Below are positions 1 through 14,469 of a stretch of 14,469 bases of DNA, one piece after another; position 1 is the first letter of the stretch, and each line of letters opens with the position of its first letter. The position numbers were made by a program, and so were the translations under genes. The notes beneath the pieces are model-generated. The model had not been told where the DNA came from, did no database searches, and saw only the letters and a list, made by a program, of their open reading frames with translations. Source of the DNA: a virus; the UHGV virus genome UHGV-0142781. One strand, given 5' to 3'.

Positions 1-236
1 GACAGCAACCGGCATGTTCCATTATCAGCAGGCTGTGACCGTTCGACATACCCGGTAAACCAGCGCAGGACCAGACCATCATAACCAACATCGATCCGCA
101 CCATTTTGCCGGTGTAATCTGTCTCTGTCCCCGCCGTAATAAACCCCCGACCGCACGCGTTCAGCTCCAGCACGATATTGCAGTCAATCAGATGGACCGG
201 ATCAGAGGAAAGGTACAGGCGTTTAATTGGTTTCAT
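1..236 (-). CDS. Phage tail protein, N-terminal part (gene runs off window start); weak resemblance to P2 gpD (late control D / hub) N-terminus
   Basis: Reverse-strand ATG at 234-236; my translation begins MKPIKRLYLSSDPVHLIDCNIVLELNACGRGF... and stays open to position 1. The GRGF...G.DG.V...F.GYVE pattern loosely matches my recollection of gpD-family N-termini. Product identity is low-confidence. Confidence 0.45.
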   Translation of the reverse strand, partial: MKPIKRLYLSSDPVHLIDCNIVLELNACGRGFITAGTETDYTGKMVRIDVGYDGLVLRWFTGYVERSQPADNGTCRLL

Positions 237-243
237 CGTTTAA

Positions 244-786
244 TTACCCCAGCGCATCGTTGACCGGCTTTAAGACTTTTTCTTCAAACCAGCTCATTTT
301 GTCGGCTGGTTCATCAGCACCGGCAGCCGGACCCGCGCCCTTTGCCCCTGTTTGCTTGGTGCTGGCCGTCGCGTTGCCTTTTCGGGCCTGTCGTTTTTCC
401 GGGACACTGCCTTTTTCACGCAGGGTGAAACTTACCTGCCAGGCAAGGCGATCCTCCTGCGGTACGGCATCAATCTGACCGGTGAACGTGGCTTCACGAA
501 GGTTGATAGCCGTTGCCGTCGCATTGGCAACACGGTACTTTTTTAACGCGCCGCTGGCTTCGGTTGCGGATGCCAGCTGGAAAAGCCGCTGTAAGACGGC
601 TTCGTCGTCGAATGTCACCAGACCCGACACGCGCAGCTCTTTGGCCTTGATGCCCTGTTCAGCATTGGCCGTGCTCGATGTCTGGCCCGACTGGTCCTTC
701 TCCTGAAACTGCATGGAAGGTGAAACCAGCATGTTTTGCATGGCAATCCCTTCACCATCAAGCGCGAGTAGTGCGGTCTGGCTCAT
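244..786 (-). CDS. Hypothetical phage structural protein (position consistent with gpU-like tail protein)
   Basis: 180-aa ORF with AGGGAAG-type RBS upstream of its ATG; sits between the Ala-rich ORF and the gpD-like ORF on the same strand; host-like GC. Function assigned by position only. Confidence 0.5.
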   Translation of the reverse strand: MSQTALLALDGEGIAMQNMLVSPSMQFQEKDQSGQTSSTANAEQGIKAKELRVSGLVTFDDEAVLQRLFQLASATEASGALKKYRVANATATAINLREATFTGQIDAVPQEDRLAWQVSFTLREKGSVPEKRQARKGNATASTKQTGAKGAGPAAGADEPADKMSWFEEKVLKPVNDALG

Positions 787-1288
787 GTAGCATCTTCCCT
801 AAGTCAGATAACGAATCCCCGATAAACATCATCGCGGCGGTATGCACTGCCGTTGTTTGCGGGATGCCTTTCAGCAATTCAGCGGCAGCAACGGCATAAC
901 TTCCGCTGTAACTGAATGAAAAAATATTCGCACTGGCGGCTTTCAGGTCGTCCAGTCCCTGGCTGAGCGAGGACAGCAAACCGGCCCGTTCCTGAATAAA
1001 TCCCGTAACCTGATTTTTTAGATCTGTTGTGGTGGTACTGACTGCGGCGGCCAGCTGCGCGGCGGCAACACGCTGGGCATTCAGCGCCAGCCGGTTGGTT
1101 GAGACTGATAACGGCGCACTGGCTGGCAATACATCTGCTTTAACCGGCAACTGCATTTTTACTGTGCTGAGTTCTGCGGCCGCTGCCGCCATGCGGCTTA
1201 CCTGCGTAAATACCGGGGCCGGAAATACGGTGGACAGTTTATTCAGTCCCTGCATAAAAGCGTCATGGGTATTTTCCGCCACCATCAT
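758..1288 (-). CDS. Ala/Gly-rich phage protein, possibly a 5'-truncated tape-measure (gpT)-like remnant
   Basis: ORF track gives 758..1552, but that start would overlap the divergent Q start codon. The first plausible internal start is the MM pair at 1283-1288. The frame stays open upstream to 1552, as expected if the gene's 5' end was lost. Composition (poly-Ala, Q/L/S-rich) is tape-measure-like. Confidence 0.35.
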   Translation of the reverse strand: MMVAENTHDAFMQGLNKLSTVFPAPVFTQVSRMAAAAAELSTVKMQLPVKADVLPASAPLSVSTNRLALNAQRVAAAQLAAAVSTTTTDLKNQVTGFIQERAGLLSSLSQGLDDLKAASANIFSFSYSGSYAVAAAELLKGIPQTTAVHTAAMMFIGDSLSDLGKMLHEPDRTTRA

Positions 1289-1545
1289 GACGATAACGTC
1301 ACCACTTCCACCACCACTACCGGATAACAGCTTTTTAGCCAGATATCCCACCGCGTTGGCAGGGCTGAGATAACCGCCTGAATACCGGTTTTTAACGCGC
1401 TCAGGTCTTCCGCTTCCATGTTTTCCACGCTTTTGACGTATACCGTTACCGCCAGGGTGTGGCTGGTTATCTCGCACGCCGTAATTAACGAACCTATCGA
1501 TCACGAATATGACCGCCCATCGGGCTGGTACTTTGGGAAAGCAGC

Positions 1546-2607
1546 ATGACAAAGAAACAGCGTAAAAATAAAAAATTCGGGTCCATGACCGGCAACAAGG
1601 TTGAAACCTTCACGCCAGGGCGCGGAAGCGTGATCACCTTTGGCGAACCAGAACCCATCCTGACGACCGGCACTGATTATCACAATATCTGGTATGACAA
1701 TGAGTATGACCACTGGCGACTCCCGATTGATCGCCTGGCGCTGGCCCAGTTGCCGAACCTTAACGGCCAGCACGGCGGGGTACTGTATGCGCGGCGCAAT
1801 ATGGTGGCCGGTGGCTATATCGGCGGCGGCCTGACGCCTGACCAGGTCGAACAGGCTGTCTTTGATTACCTGCTGTTTGGTGACGTCGCTATCCTGAAAA
1901 TTCGTAACGTATTCGGGGAAGTGATCGACCTGCTGCCGCTGCCGTCGCTGTATCTGCGCTGCCGGAAAGACGGGTCGTTTGCCGTTCTGCAGGAAGGGCC
2001 AGCGCTTATCTATGACCCGGAAGACATCGTTTTCTTTAAAATGTACGACCCTCGCCAGCAGGTGTATGGCCTGCCTGACTATATCGGCGGCATCCATTCG
2101 GTGTTACTCAACAGTGAGGCAACCATCTTCAGGCGCCGTTACTACAATAACGGGGCGCACATGGGCTTTATTCTCTATACCAGCGATCCGAATCTGACGC
2201 TGGAAATGGAAAACGAAATCAAAGAGAAGATCGCCCAGTCCAAAGGGCTGGGTAACTTCCGCAATATGTTTATCAACATCCCGAAGGGCGACCCGGAAGG
2301 GGTTAAAATCCTGCCGGTGGGCGAAGTCAGCGCAAAGGACGAATTTGCCAACATCAAAGGGATCACCGCACAGGATATCTTTACCGCTCACCGTTTCCCC
2401 GCTGGCCTGGCGGGTATCATCCCGACCAATGGCGCGGTAATGGGCAACCCTGAAACCGCCCGCACAACCTATCGCAAGGATGAAGTTATCCCCTTGCAGC
2501 GCAAGCTAATGAACGGCGTCAACAATGACCCGGAGATCCCCGCACACTTGCACCTGGTTTTTGACGTGGATATCCCAGCAATTACCACCGAAAAGGGCGA
2601 AAAATGA
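1546..2607 (+). CDS. Q: Capsid portal protein (P2 gpQ family)
   Basis: 353 aa; motifs FGEPEP, IFRRRYYNNGAHMGFILY, SKGLGNFRNMF and EVSAKDEFANIKGITAQDIFTAHR match my recollection of P2 gpQ. GGGAAAG RBS at 1533-1539. Confidence 0.85.
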   Translation: MTKKQRKNKKFGSMTGNKVETFTPGRGSVITFGEPEPILTTGTDYHNIWYDNEYDHWRLPIDRLALAQLPNLNGQHGGVLYARRNMVAGGYIGGGLTPDQVEQAVFDYLLFGDVAILKIRNVFGEVIDLLPLPSLYLRCRKDGSFAVLQEGPALIYDPEDIVFFKMYDPRQQVYGLPDYIGGIHSVLLNSEATIFRRRYYNNGAHMGFILYTSDPNLTLEMENEIKEKIAQSKGLGNFRNMFINIPKGDPEGVKILPVGEVSAKDEFANIKGITAQDIFTAHRFPAGLAGIIPTNGAVMGNPETARTTYRKDEVIPLQRKLMNGVNNDPEIPAHLHLVFDVDIPAITTEKGEK

Positions 2608-2930
2608 GCGCAGTTAAGTTAAAATCATCCCCATTGTTAGCAATGGTGTGCGGGATGGTGAACATGCGAGTTTTTAAAATTAAATGTCCTGAATGCGGCT
2701 CACCGGCCATCATTCGCAAATCAGACTGGAAAGATAAAAAACTGGCCGATTTATACTGCGCCTGCACGGAAGTTGAATGCGGCCACACCTTTGTTTTTAA
2801 CGCCCAGTTTTCACATACTCTCAGCCCCAGCGGACTGACCGGCAACAAGCTGGTTAAATTTCTGATTGATCGGCTCAAACCAGACGAAAGACAATTCGCT
2901 TTAGATTTGCTAAACAACCATATTAATTAA
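2604..2930 (+). CDS. Ogr/Delta-family zinc-finger transcriptional activator (late-gene activator type)
   Basis: CPEC-x22-C-TEVE-C-GHTF matches the Ogr pattern C-x2-C-x22-C-x4-C-x2-TF (P2 Ogr: CPLC...CQNVNCSATF). ATG at 2604 overlaps the Q stop TGA at 2605-2607 (ATGA). An alternative start at 2664 (MRVFKIKCPEC) gives an Ogr-sized protein. Confidence 0.7.
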   Translation: MSAVKLKSSPLLAMVCGMVNMRVFKIKCPECGSPAIIRKSDWKDKKLADLYCACTEVECGHTFVFNAQFSHTLSPSGLTGNKLVKFLIDRLKPDERQFALDLLNNHIN

Positions 2931-2982
2931 CCTATAAGCACCGAGTATCTTTATTTAAATGTGATATTTATAAGGAAATATA
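2931..2982 (+). promoter_or_regulatory. AT-rich leader of the cargo cassette (possible promoter plus RBS)
   Basis: Very AT-rich stretch (TTTATTTAAATGTGATATTTATAAGGAAATATA) ending in an AAGGA RBS before the ATG at 2983. No specific -35/-10 assigned. Confidence 0.3.
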
Positions 2983-4818
2983 ATGAGCAATTCAAAATAC
3001 ATTAATTTAGATGCGAGAATAAAAAAACTAAAAGAAGTTGTTAAAGATTTAGACACAAACACTTTAGCAACCTACTCTTTTTGGGAAATGTACAAATTTG
3101 GTACATTAGGTCAAAAAATTGAACTACAATCACCAGCACGACAAATCTTATATCTTTTTGGGATTGCATGTTCATCTGCTGAACCAACCGAACCAACTGA
3201 TAATGTTGAGGGTAAGATAAAACAAACAGTAGAGATCCTAAATGATATTTTTACAAAATATATGTTGGCGTACTTTCCAACCAAAGATGATTTAAAATCT
3301 GGATTAGAAGATGAATGGCATAAAGTTAGAGAAGTTGCTATGCCAATGTTTTCAAACTACTTTTTTGAAGGGTTAAAAGTTTCCACTGAAAACTTCAAAG
3401 GGATCATAAAAAATTATTTCAATGGTTTTGAAAATGAAATAAAAACACATTTTGGCTTAGATCACCATGAAATGGTAGAAATTTTAAATCTCATTGGTGA
3501 GCTTATACAGAGCAAATATGACAGATTCCGTGAAATAATGGATACATTAAAAGACGAACATGAGAAATTTAAAGAGAATAATTTTGAAAAACATGAAGAT
3601 TTTATAACATATATGGATGACATGAGGGAGCGTACAAAACATTTAGCACAAGAATTTCATGACTTCCTCAATGGGAGTGTATCATTCAAGTTTGATTCAA
3701 TAAGATGTAAACTTGGTGACGATGTCGTTGATAGTTTTATAAAAGCTTTCGTTACAGAGCGTGGAAACTCATCCGAAATCAAATACATTACTGATGAGAA
3801 TCCATTTTCATATAAACCGATAGTAACTGTAAATAATCTGGATTATATGCTCCCTTCTGCTAACGCAGCTTATGAAGCTATCATTCTTAATCTTGAAAAG
3901 TTTTTTAAAGAGTCAAAACACAATGATAAATTTAGAAAAGCCCGAGACAACAGGCTGGAACATGAGACTTTTTGCACCTTTAGAAATTTCTTCCCTGAAT
4001 CAACTACAATACTTGAAAGTGTATTTGAAACAAACAAATCCCATAATGAACATGATCTGATTATTTTCCATGATAAAACGATTCTTATTGTAGAGGCTAA
4101 AGCATCACCACGCCGCGCTCCATTGAGAGAACCAGCCAGAGCATACATTAGAATTAGAGATGATTTCAAACGTAAATCAGGAATACAAAGCGCATCTGAA
4201 CAAGCAAATAACTTAAGAAATTTAATCATTAATAATGAAAAAACATCATTATATGATAAAAAAGGTAATTTACTATATACCATAAATCGTTGTGACTACG
4301 ACAATATATATTGTATATGTGTCACTAAAGATGATTTCGGAATGCTTGCTACAAATTTAACTTTAATGTTAGAAAAAAAAGAAGATGAACCCTACCCTTG
4401 GGTTATTTGTATTCAAGACTTGAAGTTTTATTTTGATTGCCTTAAGGAAATAGATTTGGATCATGACTATTTCTTAAATTATATTCGTGAAAGAATAAAA
4501 ATACACGGCAAAGCAACGGCATGTGATGAGCTTGAATATGCAGGTGCATACTTGAATTATGGTGGTTTCGATTTCATTAATAAAGAAGTAAACTCTAACG
4601 TTTGTCTTGATATCTCTGAATCACGAGTATTCGATGAAATCCATATCGAAAAAGTTAATGGCAGGAAATATGTTCACCAGATTAAAAAACCTACTTACAG
4701 CATTTTAAATAGAGATAAATTAATTTCTTCTTTAAATTTCAATCACTCAAACAAAGATGCAAAAAAAGCAAAATCAAAAAGAAAGGAACAGAAAAAATCC
4801 AGAAAAAGAAACCGTTAA
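2983..4818 (+). CDS. Cargo protein with central PD-(D/E)xK-like nuclease motif and poly-basic C-terminal tail; candidate defence effector
   Basis: 611 aa, strongly AT-rich. Residues 356-373 read EHDLIIFHDKTILIVEAK (D-x12-ExK, nt ~4048-4101). C-terminal 23 residues are almost all K/R/S. No Walker A motif. Confidence 0.85.
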   Translation: MSNSKYINLDARIKKLKEVVKDLDTNTLATYSFWEMYKFGTLGQKIELQSPARQILYLFGIACSSAEPTEPTDNVEGKIKQTVEILNDIFTKYMLAYFPTKDDLKSGLEDEWHKVREVAMPMFSNYFFEGLKVSTENFKGIIKNYFNGFENEIKTHFGLDHHEMVEILNLIGELIQSKYDRFREIMDTLKDEHEKFKENNFEKHEDFITYMDDMRERTKHLAQEFHDFLNGSVSFKFDSIRCKLGDDVVDSFIKAFVTERGNSSEIKYITDENPFSYKPIVTVNNLDYMLPSANAAYEAIILNLEKFFKESKHNDKFRKARDNRLEHETFCTFRNFFPESTTILESVFETNKSHNEHDLIIFHDKTILIVEAKASPRRAPLREPARAYIRIRDDFKRKSGIQSASEQANNLRNLIINNEKTSLYDKKGNLLYTINRCDYDNIYCICVTKDDFGMLATNLTLMLEKKEDEPYPWVICIQDLKFYFDCLKEIDLDHDYFLNYIRERIKIHGKATACDELEYAGAYLNYGGFDFINKEVNSNVCLDISESRVFDEIHIEKVNGRKYVHQIKKPTYSILNRDKLISSLNFNHSNKDAKKAKSKRKEQKKSRKRNR

Positions 4819-4872
4819 CAAAATATCCTTTTGACGAATTCAAACCAACTGAACATATGGAGAAAATAAAAC

Positions 4873-6228
4873 ATGAGAATGACCGCCCCATTAAAATCAT
4901 TTTCTGATGGATTTTGTGAGAATGACGACATTTTTGAAAGAAAAAAACTTCACGACATTATTATGCGAGTTGCTACTAACGCGCCTGATAAAAGTTTAGT
5001 TTTAGCATTAGATGATAAATGGGGTAATGGGAAAACTTCATTTGTAAAAATGATGGAATCAGAAATAAGCAAAAAACATTCCGATGATTTCGAAGTCATC
5101 TATTTTGATGCATTTAAAAGTGATTATCAGTCGGATCCATTTGTAGCGTTAACTTCCAATATTTATTCGTTGGTTAGTAATGAAGAAGGCAAGCTAAAAA
5201 CATTAGGTGAAAAATTATTAAGTGCTGGTAAAAAACTAGGAGCTTCATTCCTTTTAAATGGTGCGAAGTTTGCAATCAGTACTATTTCAGGTGGGATGGT
5301 TTCTGGTACTGTAGTCGAAAAGGCAAGTGATACAATATCAGAATCCATATCATCACCTGTAGAAAAATACATAGAAGAAAAGATAAAAGCAAGTGAGAGT
5401 GAGTTTGCTACTATTGAGCAATTTGGAAATTTGTTAACTGAGATATACAAAGAAAGTGGAAAGAAAATATTTTTTATAATTGATGAATTAGACCGTGCAC
5501 GACCTGATTTTTCATTGGATTTATTAGAAAAGATAAAACATATATTCTCAGTAGAGGGTATTATTTTTCTATTGGTCGTCAATCGCGAACAATTTGAAAA
5601 AAGCATTGAGTCTCGATATGGCAATATAAACTCAAGATTGTATCTCAATAAATTTGTTCATTACTGGTTTTCGCTTCCCAAAACAAGCTGTTTATCTGAT
5701 GGTTGCTTAAATGGATATACTTATTCAACTATAAAACGATATTTACTTTCCATTGATAATGGAAACGACTTATTAAGTAGAAATGGTCCGCTTCTTAATA
5801 CACTATCATTGCTTTTGGAAATAAATGGAGCTTCTTTGAGAGAGGCGGAACGCTGTTACTCGGTATTTTCGGTTATCGAAGATGTCAATAAAGTAAACTA
5901 CTATACAAGTGATGCATATAAAGTAGCTTTGGGACTTGTTGTTTTCCTGAAAGTACATAACTCACAGTTGTTAACTGAAATTGTCTTAAAAAAAATCGTG
6001 TTAAAAGAAGCGATAGCCAAGCTTTTAATATACACAGTTCATCACCACAATATAATCGAAGCTCAATTCATTGAATATATCTTAAAGTACCATTACGCAA
6101 CAAATGAAGAATTAATAGAAGAAAGGAAGCAAAGAACATACTCTGATATAGAAGGTGGATATGGTCGAAGAACTCCCCTATTAGAAGGCATGTTTAAAAC
6201 AGTTGAGGGGTTTGATATTAGTTCTTAA
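4873..6228 (+). CDS. KAP-like P-loop NTPase; candidate defence partner
   Basis: 451 aa, AT-rich. Walker A-like DDKWGNGKTSF (res 47-57, nt 5011-5043) and Walker B FFIIDELDR (res 200-208), about 150 residues apart with a hydrophobic stretch between, as in KAP NTPases. 54-bp gap after the upstream gene, same strand. Confidence 0.85.
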   Translation: MRMTAPLKSFSDGFCENDDIFERKKLHDIIMRVATNAPDKSLVLALDDKWGNGKTSFVKMMESEISKKHSDDFEVIYFDAFKSDYQSDPFVALTSNIYSLVSNEEGKLKTLGEKLLSAGKKLGASFLLNGAKFAISTISGGMVSGTVVEKASDTISESISSPVEKYIEEKIKASESEFATIEQFGNLLTEIYKESGKKIFFIIDELDRARPDFSLDLLEKIKHIFSVEGIIFLLVVNREQFEKSIESRYGNINSRLYLNKFVHYWFSLPKTSCLSDGCLNGYTYSTIKRYLLSIDNGNDLLSRNGPLLNTLSLLLEINGASLREAERCYSVFSVIEDVNKVNYYTSDAYKVALGLVVFLKVHNSQLLTEIVLKKIVLKEAIAKLLIYTVHHHNIIEAQFIEYILKYHYATNEELIEERKQRTYSDIEGGYGRRTPLLEGMFKTVEGFDISS

Positions 6229-6319
6229 ACTCTATTTTTTCGCGGACTCTTTGCCGCCCGCCCCGCATCATCGCGCAGATCGACGCAACAAGTTGCGACG
6301 GTCAGCGCGATTGCATTCA

Positions 6320-8932
6320 TTATTTTGGGTGACTACCATCCACACCCGCCAGCATTTTTTGATACTCCCCGACCGGATCAAACCGCAGGCGCGTGGCATC
6401 AATACCGTGGTTATCACGCAGACGGTCCCATAATTTATTCACCGTCCGTGACTCATCGAGTAATTGACGCGTTATCAACTCGCCGCCAGCACTGCCCCGA
6501 TAAACTTTGCCGCCAATCTCCAGACGGCTCCCCATTAACAGCGAAACAGCCTGAATCTCTGAAATCTCAACCGAACACAACGCCGCATCAGCCAGCAGAC
6601 TGGCAACCTCAGGGGCAAGCGCTGCCCGCCTGGCTTTTTCAGCCGCCGATCTGGCCTCGGTTTTTTTAACGGCAGAACGCCAGGCAACATCTAATTCGCT
6701 CCCTGGCTCATAAGGTGATCCGCTTTGCCGCCTTTTGAATGGTGCTTCACGTAGTCGCCGCATCAATTTTCGCCGCGTTGGCTGGTCCATATTTTCAAAA
6801 TCGACGATTTCCTCTTCTGATTCTTCTGTCATACCCTCCACATCACGCGAAAAATCGGTGATTTTTTCGTCTTCCGTAGAGTTATTGACAGAACTCCAAG
6901 CGTCGCCGGTTGGCGACGGCAAAAGGTCAACCCCCAAACCGGGGCCGTTTTTGGCCTCGGTGGTAGCTTTAGATTTGGCGCAGATTTTCCACTTAACCAG
7001 ACGGGTACAAATACGGGAGGCATCACCCAGACGCGGCGACCAGACCCCGAAAACCTTTTCGGGGATCTCACAATAAGCATTCATTTCATCAGCTGGCTGA
7101 TAGGCCAGACGGACGACATAGTTTTCTCGCGGGATCAAAACCCCACCCTGGCGGATGATGTAGGTAGCAAAGCACCCGACATCGGCAGCGGCGCAAACCG
7201 CATCCATTGCAGGATCCACAAGCAACGGCGCACCGCGTTTGAAGGTATTGTCAATTTTCTGGCGGGTCGTGATTTGATTGCTCAGTTTGCGCAGCTCGCG
7301 GTAAACCGATATGGGCGGCTGTCCGATAGGCTGAAACTGGCGGATACGGTGAAGCGATGCCCAGGCCATTGCATATTTGGCGGTTTCATTCAGCGGCTTG
7401 CCGCTTTCGTCGTCCAGTTCACCGGCCAGCGCGTGGCCGTCGATATTCTTCGAAATGTATTTAGCGATATATGCCGTTGCCGACCCTTTCCGTGGGTCCA
7501 TTTTTTTTGACTTGAAACGAGCACCGGTATTGCGGCCCAGCTCATCGCGGTCTTCCGCAATGAAGTAGGCGCGAAGGATCGCAACCGTGGCTTTGACTTG
7601 CTCTTGTGGCATAAACAGCAACGCGTGCCAGTGTGGTGTCCCATCGTGATGCGGCTCGGCGACACGGAAGCCATAAGGGCGCAAATCTTCGCGTTTCAGT
7701 TTGGCGGTTGCACGGTTCCATACACGGCATAAATAGCGCTGCGCCTGGGCGACGGTGGAATGATTCCATTTGGCATTATGGTGGCCGGACGCAATATTAC
7801 TGTGATATTTCGACGGGCAAGTGATGGTCAGGAAAATACCAACATCGCCGCGACTTTGGGCGACAAGTTCAACGCCAGCCATTCTGGTCATAAGCTCATG
7901 GCGACGAATAGCCGGGTTAGACGTGGATTTATTAATCATTTCCTCAAGCGACGAAACGTTGCCGTCTTCGTCTACCAGTTCATGACTTTTGAAAAAATCC
8001 CGGTTTTTACGGCGCTGTTCCTGCCACTCGATCAGGCTGGAAGCGCTAACGTAGGCGTGCGCTTTTTTATTTACCGCGCCAACAGCACGCAGCTGGTTCT
8101 CGCGCCAGTCACAACGCAAGCGCCAGATTTTTCGCCCCCACCAGTCAGGCGAAGCCATACGCAAAATGGCCGTGCATATGCGCTCGCGTTCCCACGGCGC
8201 ATACCATGCAGGCGGCACAATACGAAGCGCCAGCATTTCTCGGCCCAGGTGGCAATAAAGCCAGTCCAGTTCTTCGACGTTCATGTCGGAAACATTCCGC
8301 CCTAGGGCTTCGCATTCCGTCCCCAGCATTTCAGCCATGCGGCTGGCGATCTCATTAGCGGCGCTTAGTGCATCCCGCTTTGTGAAATCAGCCAGACGTT
8401 GCCAGCGCCCGAACCAGTACGCGGCCAGTTCGCCGGTGATATCAGGCGAAACACCTTGCCTTGTGCGTACAACATCAAGACGCAGCAATGATTTTTTCAC
8501 GGTTCCCATAAGAAAATCATTGGTGTGTCTGGTTTCACGGTTGACCCGTAACCACTCAATTTTTTTTCGCCAGACTTCACGAATGAAGAACGGCTCTGCT
8601 AATAAACGCGCTTCGACACCTTCCGGCGTATTGGTCCAGGCTGCCGTCGTAGATTTGGCGGCTTCCATTTCCTGCCGGATTAAATTTTGATGGGCGGCCA
8701 GTGGCAGGCCGCACGGTTCGTACCTGTCCAGCGCCTGGATAAGCGCGTTACGGTCCCGCACCTCGTCGGGGTTGTAACCGGCGTGTCTGAAGATGTGATC
8801 GATGTGTTTTTTTACGGCAGGATGATGCGCCACCGCCCCGGCAAGCGGGGCGATTTTTTTCGGTTCGTAGGTGTACAGGCCAACAGCTGGGCGCGGCGCG
8901 TTCCAGGGCCATGCAAAAGCTGTGTCAGACAT
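6320..8932 (-). CDS. A: Replication initiation protein (P2 gpA family rolling-circle endonuclease)
   Basis: About 870 aa at the expected position upstream of the cargo slot; identified by size, synteny and general resemblance to gpA. ORF track starts at a GTG at 8950; the ATG at 8930-8932 (MSDTAF...) is the more likely start. Confidence 0.85.
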   Translation of the reverse strand: MSDTAFAWPWNAPRPAVGLYTYEPKKIAPLAGAVAHHPAVKKHIDHIFRHAGYNPDEVRDRNALIQALDRYEPCGLPLAAHQNLIRQEMEAAKSTTAAWTNTPEGVEARLLAEPFFIREVWRKKIEWLRVNRETRHTNDFLMGTVKKSLLRLDVVRTRQGVSPDITGELAAYWFGRWQRLADFTKRDALSAANEIASRMAEMLGTECEALGRNVSDMNVEELDWLYCHLGREMLALRIVPPAWYAPWERERICTAILRMASPDWWGRKIWRLRCDWRENQLRAVGAVNKKAHAYVSASSLIEWQEQRRKNRDFFKSHELVDEDGNVSSLEEMINKSTSNPAIRRHELMTRMAGVELVAQSRGDVGIFLTITCPSKYHSNIASGHHNAKWNHSTVAQAQRYLCRVWNRATAKLKREDLRPYGFRVAEPHHDGTPHWHALLFMPQEQVKATVAILRAYFIAEDRDELGRNTGARFKSKKMDPRKGSATAYIAKYISKNIDGHALAGELDDESGKPLNETAKYAMAWASLHRIRQFQPIGQPPISVYRELRKLSNQITTRQKIDNTFKRGAPLLVDPAMDAVCAAADVGCFATYIIRQGGVLIPRENYVVRLAYQPADEMNAYCEIPEKVFGVWSPRLGDASRICTRLVKWKICAKSKATTEAKNGPGLGVDLLPSPTGDAWSSVNNSTEDEKITDFSRDVEGMTEESEEEIVDFENMDQPTRRKLMRRLREAPFKRRQSGSPYEPGSELDVAWRSAVKKTEARSAAEKARRAALAPEVASLLADAALCSVEISEIQAVSLLMGSRLEIGGKVYRGSAGGELITRQLLDESRTVNKLWDRLRDNHGIDATRLRFDPVGEYQKMLAGVDGSHPK

Positions 8933-9146
8933 TGGATGCCCCGCTATCACCCTCCCGCTGGGAATGTTTTTCGATTAGCGGGTCGAGTAACACATTGAAA
9001 GAAATCAACAGCGTATTTGCGGCTTCACTTCCGGCGAGAACACCCGCGAACGTTGCGTGTGCAAGGGCCAGTGTTTTGGCTTCGTTAAGCGCAGCCAGTG
9101 CGCCGCGCTGGTATTCCGAAAGACCGTTATTAATTTTGTTAGCCAT
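8925..9146 (-). CDS. Small hypothetical phage early protein
   Basis: 73 aa; its ATG overlaps the dam stop (TGATG at ~9144-9148), suggesting translational coupling; position matches the small ORFs before A in P2. Confidence 0.6.
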   Translation of the reverse strand: MANKINNGLSEYQRGALAALNEAKTLALAHATFAGVLAGSEAANTLLISFNVLLDPLIEKHSQREGDSGASNV

Positions 9147-10111
9147 CAGAAGACCACCTCGTCAGCCGTCCCACCCCACACGGAATAACCAGCACAAGGG
9201 CCACAGTCAGGACAGCACCCACCACCTGCACGACGACAAGTTGCACAGACTTTGAGGACGCCGATCACTTCACTGGCGGCCCCTCTGGTAATGGCGTTCG
9301 CGCTGACAGAACGGTTAACGCTGATTTCCTGGAAGTTGAAAGCGCGATAAATCTCGCGGGTAGATGGGGTGTCGCTATTGGACAGGATCACCGGCGAACC
9401 AGTAAGGCGGTTAATATCCAGCAGGGCGGCAGCTAACTGGCGATGCTCTTTAATCCCAAACGGGGCGGTGTGGTATTGGGTGAAATTAGCGGTTTCGCTT
9501 GTTGGCAGGTATGGCGGATCGCAGTAGATAACCGCGTCACTACCAATCATAATTTTTAACGTGCTCTGGAAATCGCAGCACACGAAAATGGCTTTCGTGT
9601 CGTTAGCTTTTTCAGTGAATAAACGGATCTGTTCTTCCGGGAAGTAAGGCGGGGTTTTGTGTCGCCCAAAGGGAACGTTATATCCACCCTGTTGGTTGTA
9701 GCGTACTACGCCGTTATATCCGTGACGGTTCAGGTAAAGAAATTGTGCTGCACGAAGAATCTTGCCCGTGTCCGGTCCGTCCTCAAACACATTGCGCGAT
9801 GACAGAAGGTCATAGGCGCGGGCGTTGAAATCATCGCGGATCCACTTATAGCCGTCTTTATCGCCGTACACTTTAAACAGCGGGCGAGCAGCGTCGATCA
9901 CCGCATCAGGCCAGCGGGTTATCTGGCGATACAGGTTAATTAAATCTGGGTTGATATCACCCAGGATATAACGGCGATATTCAGTATTGAGGAAAACAGA
10001 AGCACCGCCGACAAACGGTTCCACCAGGCAATCGGCTTTCGGCAGAATCGTTAGCAAATCAGGCATAACCCGGCCTTTGCCACCGGGCCATTTAACGAGA
10101 GATCGAATCAT
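9146..10111 (-). CDS. dam: DNA adenine methyltransferase (Dam family) with Cys-rich C-terminal extension
   Basis: N-terminal KWPGGK, EPFVGG and catalytic DPPY (res 198-201) motifs; GGAGAAAG RBS. C-terminal about 35 residues carry six Cys (CATC...CC..C..C). Confidence 0.9.
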   Translation of the reverse strand: MIRSLVKWPGGKGRVMPDLLTILPKADCLVEPFVGGASVFLNTEYRRYILGDINPDLINLYRQITRWPDAVIDAARPLFKVYGDKDGYKWIRDDFNARAYDLLSSRNVFEDGPDTGKILRAAQFLYLNRHGYNGVVRYNQQGGYNVPFGRHKTPPYFPEEQIRLFTEKANDTKAIFVCCDFQSTLKIMIGSDAVIYCDPPYLPTSETANFTQYHTAPFGIKEHRQLAAALLDINRLTGSPVILSNSDTPSTREIYRAFNFQEISVNRSVSANAITRGAASEVIGVLKVCATCRRAGGGCCPDCGPCAGYSVWGGTADEVVF

Positions 10112-10181
10112 TTTTACTTTCTCCAGGGTGCAAGAAGCCCGACGCGTTAGCGCCTGTTTCTTTTTTGTGGGTAGTTAGTTG

Positions 10182-10571
10182 TTAATTGACTGCGTTATCT
10201 GGCGCGGGTGGTTTGTCGCGTATCGCCTGAATTTCGGCGCGTGGTGCTGCATAGTCCTTAAATTCCCACGGCATTGATGCTGCAAATTCGGAAAGGCGCT
10301 TAATGCCCATCAAAAGGCACGTTTGCTCCTTTTCGGTTAGATTTCCGTAAGTACAACCCAGCTGTTTAGCGGTCAGCTTCGGCATTCCGGCTATGTATCT
10401 GGACGCATCGTTTGCCAGGATGAAAATCACCTTTTTACAGGCATCATCTAGGCGGTTAAAACGGGTTGCAGTGTCGTTCACGCGTGAGGCGTTCAAACTG
10501 GCTTGTAGCCGCGCCCGTTGCTCTAAGAACTGGCGGCGGCCTGGTTGTTGTTCTGTCTTATCCATCAACAT
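10182..10571 (-). CDS. Hypothetical phage early protein
   Basis: ORF track starts at a GTG at 10577; the ATG at 10569-10571 has a GGGGAGG RBS 5 nt upstream. About 129 aa, phage-typical GC, same strand as the early operon. Confidence 0.6.
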   Translation of the reverse strand: MLMDKTEQQPGRRQFLEQRARLQASLNASRVNDTATRFNRLDDACKKVIFILANDASRYIAGMPKLTAKQLGCTYGNLTEKEQTCLLMGIKRLSEFAASMPWEFKDYAAPRAEIQAIRDKPPAPDNAVN

Positions 10572-10586
10572 AACCACCTCCCCGAA

Positions 10587-10808
10587 CTACGCAAAGATGC
10601 CCATTAAGCGGGAAAACCAGCGGCGCTTATTACGCGGGCGCGACATGAACGGTACACGGCAGTTTTTAACAAATTGAACATCTGCCGCTTTCGGCTGGAA
10701 GAACCGCCCGTCCGGGGTTTCAATCCAGCCGCGTTGATGCTGACGGTGGGTGATCTGCTGGCCGTGCGTGAGCAGACTAGCGAGTGAAGGGCATTGTGTT
10801 AATTCCAT
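10587..10808 (-). CDS. Small hypothetical phage early protein
   Basis: ORF track gives 10587..10880; the internal ATG at 10806-10808 (MELTQCP...) is preceded by GGAG. GC-rich, same strand as neighbours. Start uncertain. Confidence 0.45.
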   Translation of the reverse strand: MELTQCPSLASLLTHGQQITHRQHQRGWIETPDGRFFQPKAADVQFVKNCRVPFMSRPRNKRRWFSRLMGIFA

Positions 10809-10946
10809 GTTGATCTCCGTCATATTGAAAAGATGCCGGGATACGACCCCACGCCCGGCGCGTGTTTCCTGTGATAACATCGCTATGCCTGTGTAACTTT
10901 GAGCAGTGAATCAGGCATAACAATCACCAACACAGAAGGAGTTGTA

Positions 10947-12637: not shown

Positions 12638-13645
12638 ATGACAATTAAGAAACTCGATGATGGTCGTTATGAAGTGGATATCAGACCTGCAGGGCGCAAC
12701 GGAAAGCGCATCCGCAGGAAATTTGACAAGAAAAGTGAGGCTGTAGCTTTTGAGAAACACACTCAATACAACCATCACGATAAAGAATGGCTGGCTAAAC
12801 CGACAGATAAGCGGCATCTGTCTGAATTAACAAAAGTCTGGTGGGATCTGAAAGGCAAGCATGAAGAACACGGAAAATCCAATTTGGGTAAGATTGAAAT
12901 CTTTACCCGGATCACTGATGACCCTTGCGCGTTCCAGATAACCAAAGCGCTTATTAGCCAGTACAGCATGACTCGCAGAGGGCAAGGCATAAAACCGGCC
13001 AGTATTAACCGCGACCTTACCTGCTTGAGTGGTATGTTTACTGCGCTAATTGATGCGGAGTTGTTTTTTGGCGAACACCCTTTCAGAGGGATGAAAAAGC
13101 TCAAGGAGCAGAAACCAGAAACAGGCTATCTGACGCAGGAAGAAATAACATTGTTGCTTGCCAATCTTGACGGGGACAACAAGAAAATCGCGATTCTCTG
13201 TTTAAGTACCGGCGCTCGATGGGGTGAGGCCGCGAAACTGAAAGCTGAGAACGTAATACAGAATCGGGTGACGTTCGTTAAAACAAAGACGAACAAACCA
13301 CGTACTGTCCCTATCTCTGAGGAAGTAGCTGTAATGATTGCGGGTAAAGGGTATCTGTTCCCAGATGCCTCATACCCGAAGTTCAGGCGAACAATGAAAG
13401 ATGTAAAACCAGATCTACCGGACGGGCAAGCAACTCACGCATTGCGTCACAGTTTTGCTACCCACTTTATGATTAACGGCGGGAGTATCATCACCTTGCA
13501 GAGAATACTGGGACATTCACGGATAGAGCAGACAATGGTCTATGCGCACTTTGCCCCGGAGTATCTTCAGGATGCTGTTTCACTCAATCCGCTACGTGGT
13601 GGTGTTGACTCCCAGAGTGTCCACACTGTGTCCACAGTAGGGTAG
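12638..13645 (+). CDS. int: Tyrosine integrase (P2 Int family)
   Basis: 335 aa; N-terminus MTIKKLDDGRYEVDIRPAGRNGKRIRRKFDKKSEAVAFEK and C-terminal HALRHSFATHFM...LGHSRIEQTMVYAHFAPEY match P2 Int as I recall it. GGGGG RBS. Confidence 0.95.
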   Translation: MTIKKLDDGRYEVDIRPAGRNGKRIRRKFDKKSEAVAFEKHTQYNHHDKEWLAKPTDKRHLSELTKVWWDLKGKHEEHGKSNLGKIEIFTRITDDPCAFQITKALISQYSMTRRGQGIKPASINRDLTCLSGMFTALIDAELFFGEHPFRGMKKLKEQKPETGYLTQEEITLLLANLDGDNKKIAILCLSTGARWGEAAKLKAENVIQNRVTFVKTKTNKPRTVPISEEVAVMIAGKGYLFPDASYPKFRRTMKDVKPDLPDGQATHALRHSFATHFMINGGSIITLQRILGHSRIEQTMVYAHFAPEYLQDAVSLNPLRGGVDSQSVHTVSTVG

Positions 13646-13848: not shown

Positions 13849-14469
13849 TTAATGTGCAGCTTCTGGCTTGTGCTTTTGCGCACTCTGGAAACCATAAGTC
13901 AGCTCATTTTTCTCTTTATCCAGCGCAACGGTCACCTGGCCACCATCCACCAGCGAACCGAACAGCAGTTCGTTAGCCAATGGTTTTTTCAGGTTATCCT
14001 GGACAACACGCGTCATTGGACGTGCGCCCATTGCGCGGTCGTAGCCTTTCTCTGCCAGCCAGTCACGTGCTTCCTGGCTCACTTCCAGAGAGACACCTTT
14101 CTGATCCAGCTGAACCTGAAGCTCGACGATAAACTTATCAACAACCTGATGAATCACCTCGGTAGAGAGATGATCAAACCAGATAATGTTGTCGAGGCGG
14201 TTACGGAATTCCGGCGTAAACACTTTTTTGATTTCGCCCATTGCATCAGTACTATTGTCCTGATGAATCAACCCAATCGATTTACGCTCAGTTTCACGCA
14301 CACCGGCGTTGGTGGTCATGACCAGCACCACATTGCGGAAATCCGCTTTACGCCCGTTATTGTCGGTCAGCGTGCCGTTATCCATCACCTGCAACAGCAG
14401 GTTAAAGACATCCGGGTGTGCTTTTTCGATTTCATCCAGCAGCAGTACCGCATGCGGATGCTTAATAAC
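13849..14469 (-). CDS. clpA: ATP-dependent Clp protease ATP-binding subunit ClpA, C-terminal part (gene runs off window end)
   Basis: Translation ...LLQVMDNGTLTDNNGRKADFRNVVLVMTTNAG...ALDKEKNELTYGFQSAQKHKPEAAH matches the ClpA C-terminus nearly residue for residue; stop at 13849-13851. Confidence 0.95.
   Translation of the reverse strand, partial: VIKHPHAVLLLDEIEKAHPDVFNLLLQVMDNGTLTDNNGRKADFRNVVLVMTTNAGVRETERKSIGLIHQDNSTDAMGEIKKVFTPEFRNRLDNIIWFDHLSTEVIHQVVDKFIVELQVQLDQKGVSLEVSQEARDWLAEKGYDRAMGARPMTRVVQDNLKKPLANELLFGSLVDGGQVTVALDKEKNELTYGFQSAQKHKPEAAH

Follow-up and report, generated by a model that had tools for sequence, protein, structure and literature searches.

A basic C-terminal tail with a fixed ending on a NERD-like nuclease of the P2 defence hotspot: a candidate docking element

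The present study concerns the C-terminal tail of a nuclease of 611 amino acids (aa), which is encoded on the plus strand at positions 2983-4818 of a stretch of DNA from the virus genome UHGV-0142781. The whole stretch of 14,469 nucleotides (nt) that was analysed is called the window here. It was found that the last 23 residues of the protein form a Lys/Arg-rich tail which is under selection and has a specific ending. In relatives of the nuclease the same position can be occupied by a cationic zinc knuckle of the SEC-C type, and the two endings are positionally interchangeable. The gene is a self-contained, single-gene cassette of the hotspot in which P2-like prophages carry defence genes. The reading we favour, and which we hold to be moderately probable, is that selection maintains the tail as a modular docking element at the C-terminus of a stand-alone NERD-like nuclease that travels as cargo of the P2 hotspot.

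The basic tail, its fixed ending and the SEC-C alternative

An earlier note on this DNA had pointed to an almost entirely basic C-terminus, and the tail is real and lies exactly where it had been placed. Residues 589-611, encoded at nt 4747-4815, read SNKDAKKAKSKRKEQKKSRKRNR and are followed by the stop codon TAA (4816-4818); these are 23 residues, of which the earlier note had quoted 22. Lys and Arg account for 13 of these 23 residues (57%) as compared to 14% in residues 1-588, and no other segment of the protein is as dense in Lys/Arg; such a density was matched anywhere in only 0.06% of 20,000 shuffles of the protein (p ~6e-4). The net charge is +11 for the tail and -15 for the body, and tails family-wide range from +10 to +17. 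The tail DNA is 64% A and the Lys codon is nearly always AAA. The AlphaFold2 (AF2) model of the protein was built on an alignment of 67 family sequences (alignment A1; a second alignment, A2, holds closer relatives only) and has a predicted local distance difference test (pLDDT) value of 91 and a predicted template modelling score (pTM) of 0.87. It places one long helix at residues 577-610, after a linker, with pLDDT 60-82 overall and 78-82 in the terminal part. The tail has no amphipathic moment (hydrophobic moment muH <= 0.24) and its mean hydrophobicity is ~ -1. Inside the linker a clade-specific L-[ND]-R-x-K-[LI] motif can be seen in alignment A1. The parts of the gene are as follows.

2983-4818, plus strand: gene of the 611-aa NERD-like PD-(D/E)xK nuclease, single-gene cargo (from the open reading frame, homologues and the AF2 model)
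2983-4002, plus strand: all-helical N-terminal region, about residues 1-340 (from the AF2 secondary structure)
3958-4326, plus strand: PD-(D/E)xK / NERD-like core, with E326 at 3958-3960, E356-H357-D358 at 4048-4056, E371 at 4093-4095 and K373 at 4099-4101
4660-4746, plus strand: variable linker from body to tail, about residues 560-588 (from the C-terminal columns of alignment A1)
4747-4797, plus strand: Lys-rich part of the tail, residues 589-605, with charge conserved and sequence variable
4761-4767 (A7), 4776-4780 (A5), 4792-4797 (A6) and 4803-4807 (A5), plus strand: A-runs in the tail DNA
4761-4767, plus strand: the A7 run as an in-frame A_AAA_AAA heptamer, site of a natural 6-nt deletion
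4798-4815, plus strand: terminal hexapeptide S606-R607-K608-R609-N610-R611 (family motif [SA]-R-[RK]-x-N-R)

Relatives were collected by a word-indexed search, which gave 134, and by an exhaustive profile search, which gave 498 clusters (at 50% identity) at E<=1e-30 and 1,791 at E<=1e-10. The ending [SA]-R/K-[RK]-x-N-R was present, 0-3 residues from the C-terminus, in 79/79 full-length basic-tailed relatives, down to ~30% identity. Among 63 distinct tails the first position of the motif was Ser or Ala in every one, Asn was present in 62 and an Arg followed the Asn in 58; in alignment A2, N610 is at least 90% conserved. The tails had been anchored with a regular expression, and both the Asn and the Ser/Ala are far more uniform than the expression required. 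Because the expression was looser than the tails that were found, the uniformity of the motif is not an artefact of the search. In the Lys-rich part upstream the frequency of Lys/Arg is 0.4-0.86 per column while sequence and length vary, and K-K is preceded by two positions, -4 and -3, at which non-basic residues are conserved (E/Q and Q, respectively). Genes of 40-53% GC, which use AAG/CGN codons and have few A-runs, retain the motif. A Pseudomonas gene of 53% GC, for instance, has the ending ...AARKQNRSR written in AAG/CGA codons, with just one A5 run, and a 31%-identical plasmid homologue from Exiguobacterium (Bacillota) ends ...KQSKFSKRNNRKK, with the same motif. Among the 1,268 open reading frames (ORFs) of at least 60 aa in the collected loci, the ending was found in 21 family genes and 5 pattern-selected loci, and in 0 of the ~1,240 other ORFs. 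The comparison of homologous C-termini which the earlier note had advised thus shows the tail to be conserved among the 79 basic-tailed relatives and across phyla; other members of the family end in SEC-C or have no tail.

The ending was also sought outside the family. Two back-translated patterns of the tail led to 10 viral loci, none of which belongs to the nuclease family, and there is a weak match (E 0.013) between the tail of the window protein and the C-terminal end of phrog_33586. These are hints that the terminal motif may be portable between unrelated phage proteins. Small ORFs of 60-85 aa on IMG/VR viral contigs end ...AAKKAR[KR][KR]NR(K), and the shared ending was located as follows.

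Locus L034, 838-1053, minus strand: small ORF with the shared ending
Locus L043, 1806-1988, plus strand: small ORF with the shared ending
Locus L040, 6508-6534, minus strand: shared ending
Locus L037, 2915-2941, minus strand: shared ending

The L034 and L043 ORFs have TKKQxKxRxKxKAAKKAR upstream in common as well. The sole match of the small motif-ending ORFs is a weak one, to phrog_1622.

The A-rich run that encodes the tail had been suggested to be a slippery tract prone to frameshifting. Such a tract might serve for programmed -1/+1 frameshifting or for phase-variable slippage, which would create an alternative C-terminus or an on/off switch. The A_AAA_AAA heptamer does lie in frame at 4761-4767, and the -1 frame is open for 45 codons past it, the predicted -1 product ending ...KIKHENDRPIKIIF. 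Moreover, in a 97%-identical relative precisely the A7 run has lost 6 nt without a change of frame (GCAAAAAAAGCAAAATC to GCAAA------AAAATC). The earlier hint at length heterogeneity in the A-runs is thus borne out to some degree, but this deletion, which is the sole length variant found, leaves the frame and the terminal motif intact. In-frame heptamers shift position among homologues, and none of the form XXXYYYZ is present in the Vibrio, Pseudomonas sp. S31 and Thalassolituus genes. The -1/+1 shifted products are 1-45 aa long and mutually dissimilar; neither a conserved heptamer nor a conserved shifted product was found, and no frameshifted alleles were seen among close relatives. It is the zero-frame peptide that is conserved and not the A-runs, which are mutationally labile while selection keeps the frame. 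Slippage as the function of this tract is extremely unlikely.

In the family alignment the body is conserved up to about residue 575, from where 20-30 residues of variable linker lead either to the basic tail or to SEC-C, an ending of the form K-x-G-R-N-x-P-C-x-C-G-S-G-K-K-[YF]-K-x-C-[CH]-G (the SecA motif, PF02810). Pfam SEC-C matches were obtained in 21/67 aligned relatives, all at the same alignment position. In a further 142 representatives at 50% identity SEC-C is in the majority (76 strict and ~10 variant endings), ~22 have basic tails, and the rest are fragments or tail-less. The window protein has no Cys in its last 30 residues and no Pfam hit to the SEC-C knuckle. In a tree built without the tail, two basic-tailed clades flank the SEC-C clade and tail-less members are nested in the latter. 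The last 30 residues have a mean net charge of +13.5 in basic-tailed, +7.7 in SEC-C and +1.1 in tail-less members; SEC-C endings are themselves cationic, at +5 to +10, and the bodies of the family are acidic, at ~ -17 to -21 on average. Homologues lacking the tail, which the earlier note had held would count against it if their activity were unchanged, do exist and keep the catalytic residues, which bears that objection out in part; the fold therefore does not depend on the tail, and catalysis may not either.

Some ends in the SEC-C clade look disrupted. P0119 reads NSPCACGSGKT and then runs into unrelated sequence, apparently through an accidental frameshift; P0102 breaks off at ...DGPCTC; and a gene at 5980-7941 of locus L024 reads on into a hydrophobic stretch of unrelated sequence. 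Errors in sequencing could account for such ends, or else the terminal module may be decaying. The SEC-C ending of P0120 (locus L004, 6001-7854) weakly matches the C-termini of the unrelated PADLOC defence models E2, E1-E2 and PDC-S12 (E 0.001-0.02), an indication that defence proteins repeatedly carry a SEC-C knuckle as an appendage at their end; SEC-C is also terminal on the defence protein Rugutis (PMC11381338).

The carrier nuclease and its place in the P2 hotspot

Homologues of the carrier are annotated as hypothetical or NERD domain-containing. The "nuclease motif" that had been noticed earlier is genuine: E356-H357-(D358)...E371-x-K373 lies within a PD-(D/E)xK fold, the core strands of which span residues E342-E448 in an alpha/beta arrangement in the AF2 model. 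In alignment A1, E356, H357, E371 and K373 are invariant and D358 and E326 are at least 90% conserved, and the spacing E-x31-D-x12-E-x-K is found in 225/262 family sequences. The catalytic signature, acidic...D...E-x-K on a restriction-endonuclease-like fold, is thus present. Searches of Pfam, PADLOC and NCBIfam with the 611-aa protein gave no match at E <= 0.01. With a relaxed cut-off, NERD (PF08378) matched residues 338-417 at E 0.011 and 16.7 bits, below the gathering score of 22.1; weak Pfam NERD matches occur in 49/67 family members, the best at 1.1e-5. The best Foldseek match of the protein is the defence protein Upx (9wuf), at E 1.2e-4 with TM-scores of only 0.28/0.17, and the core further matched R.BspD6I, McrC, the R2 endonuclease (RLE), Cdn1/Can1 and Hjc. 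Because the NERD match is weak and sub-threshold and the fold of the core lies among PD-(D/E)xK nucleases, we call the protein a divergent NERD-like nuclease. Its predicted helical N-terminal region, for which Foldseek returned generic helical bundles only, is presumed to be a sensor or regulatory domain.

Other searches returned little. A profile search of PDB sequences gave spurious coiled-coil matches only, and nothing below E 0.01 was found in a viral fold library. Megablast of the cargo island in which the gene lies gave no match in INPHARED phages or in complete E. coli genomes (at ~85%+ identity; more distant homologues were not sought), and tblastn of the carrier found none among phages and only two distant plasmid matches. 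No paper describing this nuclease family was found in the literature. A defence role for the carrier is suggested by its genomic context.

This context is a P2-like prophage, which the window represents. The portal gene Q lies at 1546-2607 and an Ogr/Delta zinc-finger gene at 2604-2930; to the right of the island are gpA (6320-8950, minus strand) and a Dam methylase gene (9146-10111, minus strand), and Fil, Cox, a C-type repressor and an integrase follow farther rightward in the prophage. The interval between gpQ and gpA is a defence hotspot of P2, where old and tin are situated in P2 itself (PMC9122126). The island and its second gene are:

2931-6319, no strand assigned: AT-rich cargo island between the ogr/delta-like gene and gpA (from composition and flanking genes)
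4873-6228, plus strand: KAP-family P-loop nucleoside triphosphatase (NTPase) gene, PADLOC candidate PDC-S20 (Pfam PF07693, 3e-39; phrog_8614, 2e-130)

The island is 30-32% GC as compared to ~54% GC in its surroundings, and the nuclease gene alone is 31% GC. It holds two genes, which code for the tailed 611-aa nuclease and the KAP-family NTPase of 451 aa. In P2-like prophages of Hafnia paralvei (74% identity), Enterobacter bugandensis (69%) and a metagenomic source (62%), the nuclease is the sole cargo between ogr and gpA, and Klebsiella P2-like prophages carry a basic-tailed homologue of 44% identity at this hotspot as well. Members from Pseudomonas and Thalassolituus, as well as SEC-C and tail-less members, have unrelated neighbours, some of which are related to defence (Ppl; PRTase-CE/NADAR beside an integrase).

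The proximity of the NTPase gene makes it conceivable that the tail is a docking peptide for the adjacent KAP NTPase in a two-gene nuclease and NTPase system. The two genes lie on the same strand and in the same reading frame, separated by the TAA and 54 nt, both are of low GC, there is no terminator-like site between them (window 4816-4872), and a Shine-Dalgarno-like GGAG stands 12 nt ahead of the KAP ATG; they are probably co-transcribed though functionally independent. The pair recurs only in the nearest relatives, namely Citrobacter sp. TSA-1 (98%) and two metagenomic contigs. On the other hand, no KAP gene lies beside the 74%, 69% and 62% relatives in the hotspot or beside any other family member examined, and among these contexts no conserved co-occurrence of the two genes was found. 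The KAP gene is therefore a separate, stacked cassette and not a partner. The Klebsiella prophages (loci L001-L003, 5561-5917) have directly upstream of the nuclease only an N-terminal KAP remnant of 110-120 aa, 62-64% identical to the KAP of the window, which looks like the scar of a cassette replacement in the hotspot. The neighbour belongs to PDC-S20 (PDLC04959, 8.9e-72, residues 18-415 of 451), which PADLOC lists as a single-gene candidate, and nothing was found in the literature on NERD together with a KAP NTPase or on PDC-S20. The tail is conserved whether or not a KAP gene is present, and docking on this NTPase has hardly any probability.

Some further features of these loci were observed. 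Window positions 1468-10812 are 97.3% identical to the P2-like prophage of Citrobacter sp. TSA-1, and synteny is lost leftward (compare locus L008, 1-4486). The terminase gene is reduced to its final ~67 codons (1361-1549, 56% identity), and ahead of this remnant are a HP1_ORF34-type baseplate gene (244-786, minus strand) and an unassigned ORF at 758-1552 (minus strand); the left end of the prophage (window 1-1550) is rearranged, mosaic or defective. Just past the integrase gene (12638-13645, plus strand) is a C-terminal fragment of ClpB (AAA_2 and ClpB_D2-small; 13849-14394, minus strand), which probably marks the junction of prophage and host beside clpB. In Pseudomonas viridiflava (locus L010, 7890-9677) a 595-aa protein is encoded 38 nt downstream of the basic-tailed nuclease, and the locus adjoins a VgrG-PAAR (type VI secretion) cluster. 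The 595-aa protein gave no Pfam or PADLOC match and may be a clade-specific partner.

A docking role and its alternatives

The earlier note had suggested that such a tail may bind nucleic acid non-specifically or serve in an interaction. The idea of a binding tail is sustained by its selection, its conservation and the presence of SEC-C at its position, but the binding would not be simply non-specific, as the tail closes with a fixed hexapeptide that has a near-invariant Asn. We propose a tail of two layers: a Lys/Arg-rich stretch, of which the charge is conserved and the sequence is not, and near the C-terminus the fixed hexapeptide [SA]-R-[RK]-x-N-R. The tail and SEC-C would then do the same job, which is to tether an acidic nuclease electrostatically to a polyanion, and the Asn/Arg motif would add some specificity to this tether. 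By analogy with SecA, RNA or the ribosome would be the favoured partner, with phage or host DNA second. The tail would probably become helical once bound, in the manner of arginine-rich RNA-binding peptides. The binding partner, the functional equivalence with SEC-C and the role in defence are all inferred.

Several points weigh against a docking role. The partner is proposed by analogy, and the ribosome link of SEC-C is established only for SecA. The tail helix is predicted by AF2 with only moderate confidence. The statistics of the motif are partly circular, as the tails were anchored with a regular expression, and the viral contigs with this ending number only 10 and were retrieved with the very pattern. 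Tail-less members, moreover, keep their catalytic residues.

It could also be that the tail acts within the protein, as a latch which lies on the acidic body or in the substrate groove and keeps the nuclease off until a trigger or a competing polyanion arrives. The opposite charges of body (-15) and tail (+11) would fit this, as would the pLDDT of 78-82 in the terminal part of the helix, which is high for a free tail, and the C-terminal tail of SecA is known to modulate and autoinhibit its catalytic core (PMC6620043). A latch is also compatible with docking. It would, however, leave the natural tail-less variants constitutively active, and a zinc knuckle and a basic helix would be structurally different plugs for one groove; we regard it as rather unlikely. 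A polybasic tail might instead bind anionic phospholipids and bring the nuclease to the inner membrane, where phage DNA enters. Its strong positive charge would suit this, and in SecA the C-terminal tail and the metal-binding domain aid membrane binding, and azide disrupts the domain as well as the attachment of SecA to membranes (10.1101/613315). But the tail lacks any hydrophobic or amphipathic element (an amphipathic membrane helix is ruled out by the hydrophobic moment), and a conserved Asn/Arg hexapeptide isn't expected for lipid binding, which makes membrane targeting quite improbable. The latch and membrane binding are the live alternatives.

The other explanations are largely excluded, including slippage and docking on the KAP NTPase as discussed above. 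The tail could be a neutral, low-complexity by-product of an AT-rich acquired gene, the AAA/AGA-rich 3' end of which drifted to Lys/Arg and gained a weak, non-specific affinity for DNA. This would agree with the 31% GC of the gene, the A-rich, AAA-coded tail and the variable sequence and length of its Lys-rich part. Drift of this kind is nevertheless very unlikely: the motif persists in genes of 40-53% GC and across phyla with its near-invariant Asn, variation is in-frame only, and relatives have a SEC-C domain at the same position. The degradation tag which had been offered as a further possibility was dropped, since the tail has no ClpXP/ssrA-like feature.

Docking can be taken one step further. 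The tail and SEC-C would in this case be interchangeable docking signals for the ribosome (or for rRNA/mRNA), which place a latent NERD-like nuclease at the translation machinery, where it would act on RNA during infection. We consider this extension unlikely, but were it true, the same ending on small phage proteins would be a portable ribosome- or RNA-targeting peptide used on both sides of the conflict between phage and host, and many SEC-C motifs on defence proteins would receive their first functional explanation. Identifying the partner of the tail would explain the targeting or the restraint of a widespread nuclease that is mobilised by prophages (~500 clusters at E<=1e-30), and would probably also explain the role of SEC-C in immunity.

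Relation to known systems

The closest parallel for the alternation of endings is SecA. In SecA both the 70S ribosome and SecB are bound by SEC-C, and where this domain is missing the protein often has a highly basic tail instead (PMC6620043; 10.1101/613315). For YecA, YchJ and Met-aminopeptidases, which have similar domains, a link to ribosomes has been drawn as well (10.1101/613315). In both cases a linker-borne cationic module stands at the extreme C-terminus, and within one family it is either a CxC...C[CH] knuckle or a highly basic tail. The carriers differ, a PD-(D/E)xK nuclease in defence islands here and a translocase in SecA; the window tail has no Cys or His, and a fixed [SA]R[RK]xNR ending has not been described for SecA.

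Among nucleases, ZwsA (Zowangsin) is a stand-alone defence NERD RNA endonuclease with a C-terminal S4 RNA-binding domain (10.64898/2026.04.06.716636). Its functionally required residues E535/D567/E580/K582 are spaced identically to E326/D358/E371/K373, a comparison of spacing alone; both are single-protein effectors of defence islands, with an appendage C-terminal to the nuclease which binds nucleic acid in ZwsA and would do so here. The VHS, DUF647 and S4 domains of ZwsA were not detected in the window protein, and the lengths differ. P0235, an 814-aa relative, was considered as the equivalent of ZwsA and rejected because its residue numbering does not match; none of the collected family members matches the ZwsA numbering. 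Upx is likewise a single-protein PD-(D/E)xK defence nuclease (PMC13099982), and it is the best structural match of the window protein. It differs in having 1,212 aa and two nuclease domains as compared to 611 aa and one core, and the window protein has no PADLOC match to Upx.

Arginine-rich RNA-binding peptides, such as those of the N proteins of lambda and P22 and the 'ARRNRR' of HIV Rev, are basic and have a conserved Asn among Arg residues. The tail resembles them as a short basic peptide with a conserved Asn that is predicted to be helical, and differs in being Lys-rich upstream and in standing at the extreme C-terminus of a large enzyme.

With the tin/old cargo of P2 the nuclease shares its identical position and the pattern of low-GC cargo swapped between related prophages (PMC9122126); it differs in being absent from the PADLOC models and from the INPHARED phages searched. 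Polybasic C-terminal tails, and the alternation of SEC-C and basic endings in SecA, were already known. What appears to be new is a widespread nuclease family which is carried in the P2 hotspot as one-gene cargo and escapes PADLOC, a candidate single-gene defence cassette that current defence-finding models overlook. The fixed hexapeptide ending and the series of three states (SEC-C, basic, none) on one body also appear to be new. The family is thus a natural experiment, in which one nuclease body is found with a SEC-C knuckle, with a basic hexapeptide tail or with nothing at all.

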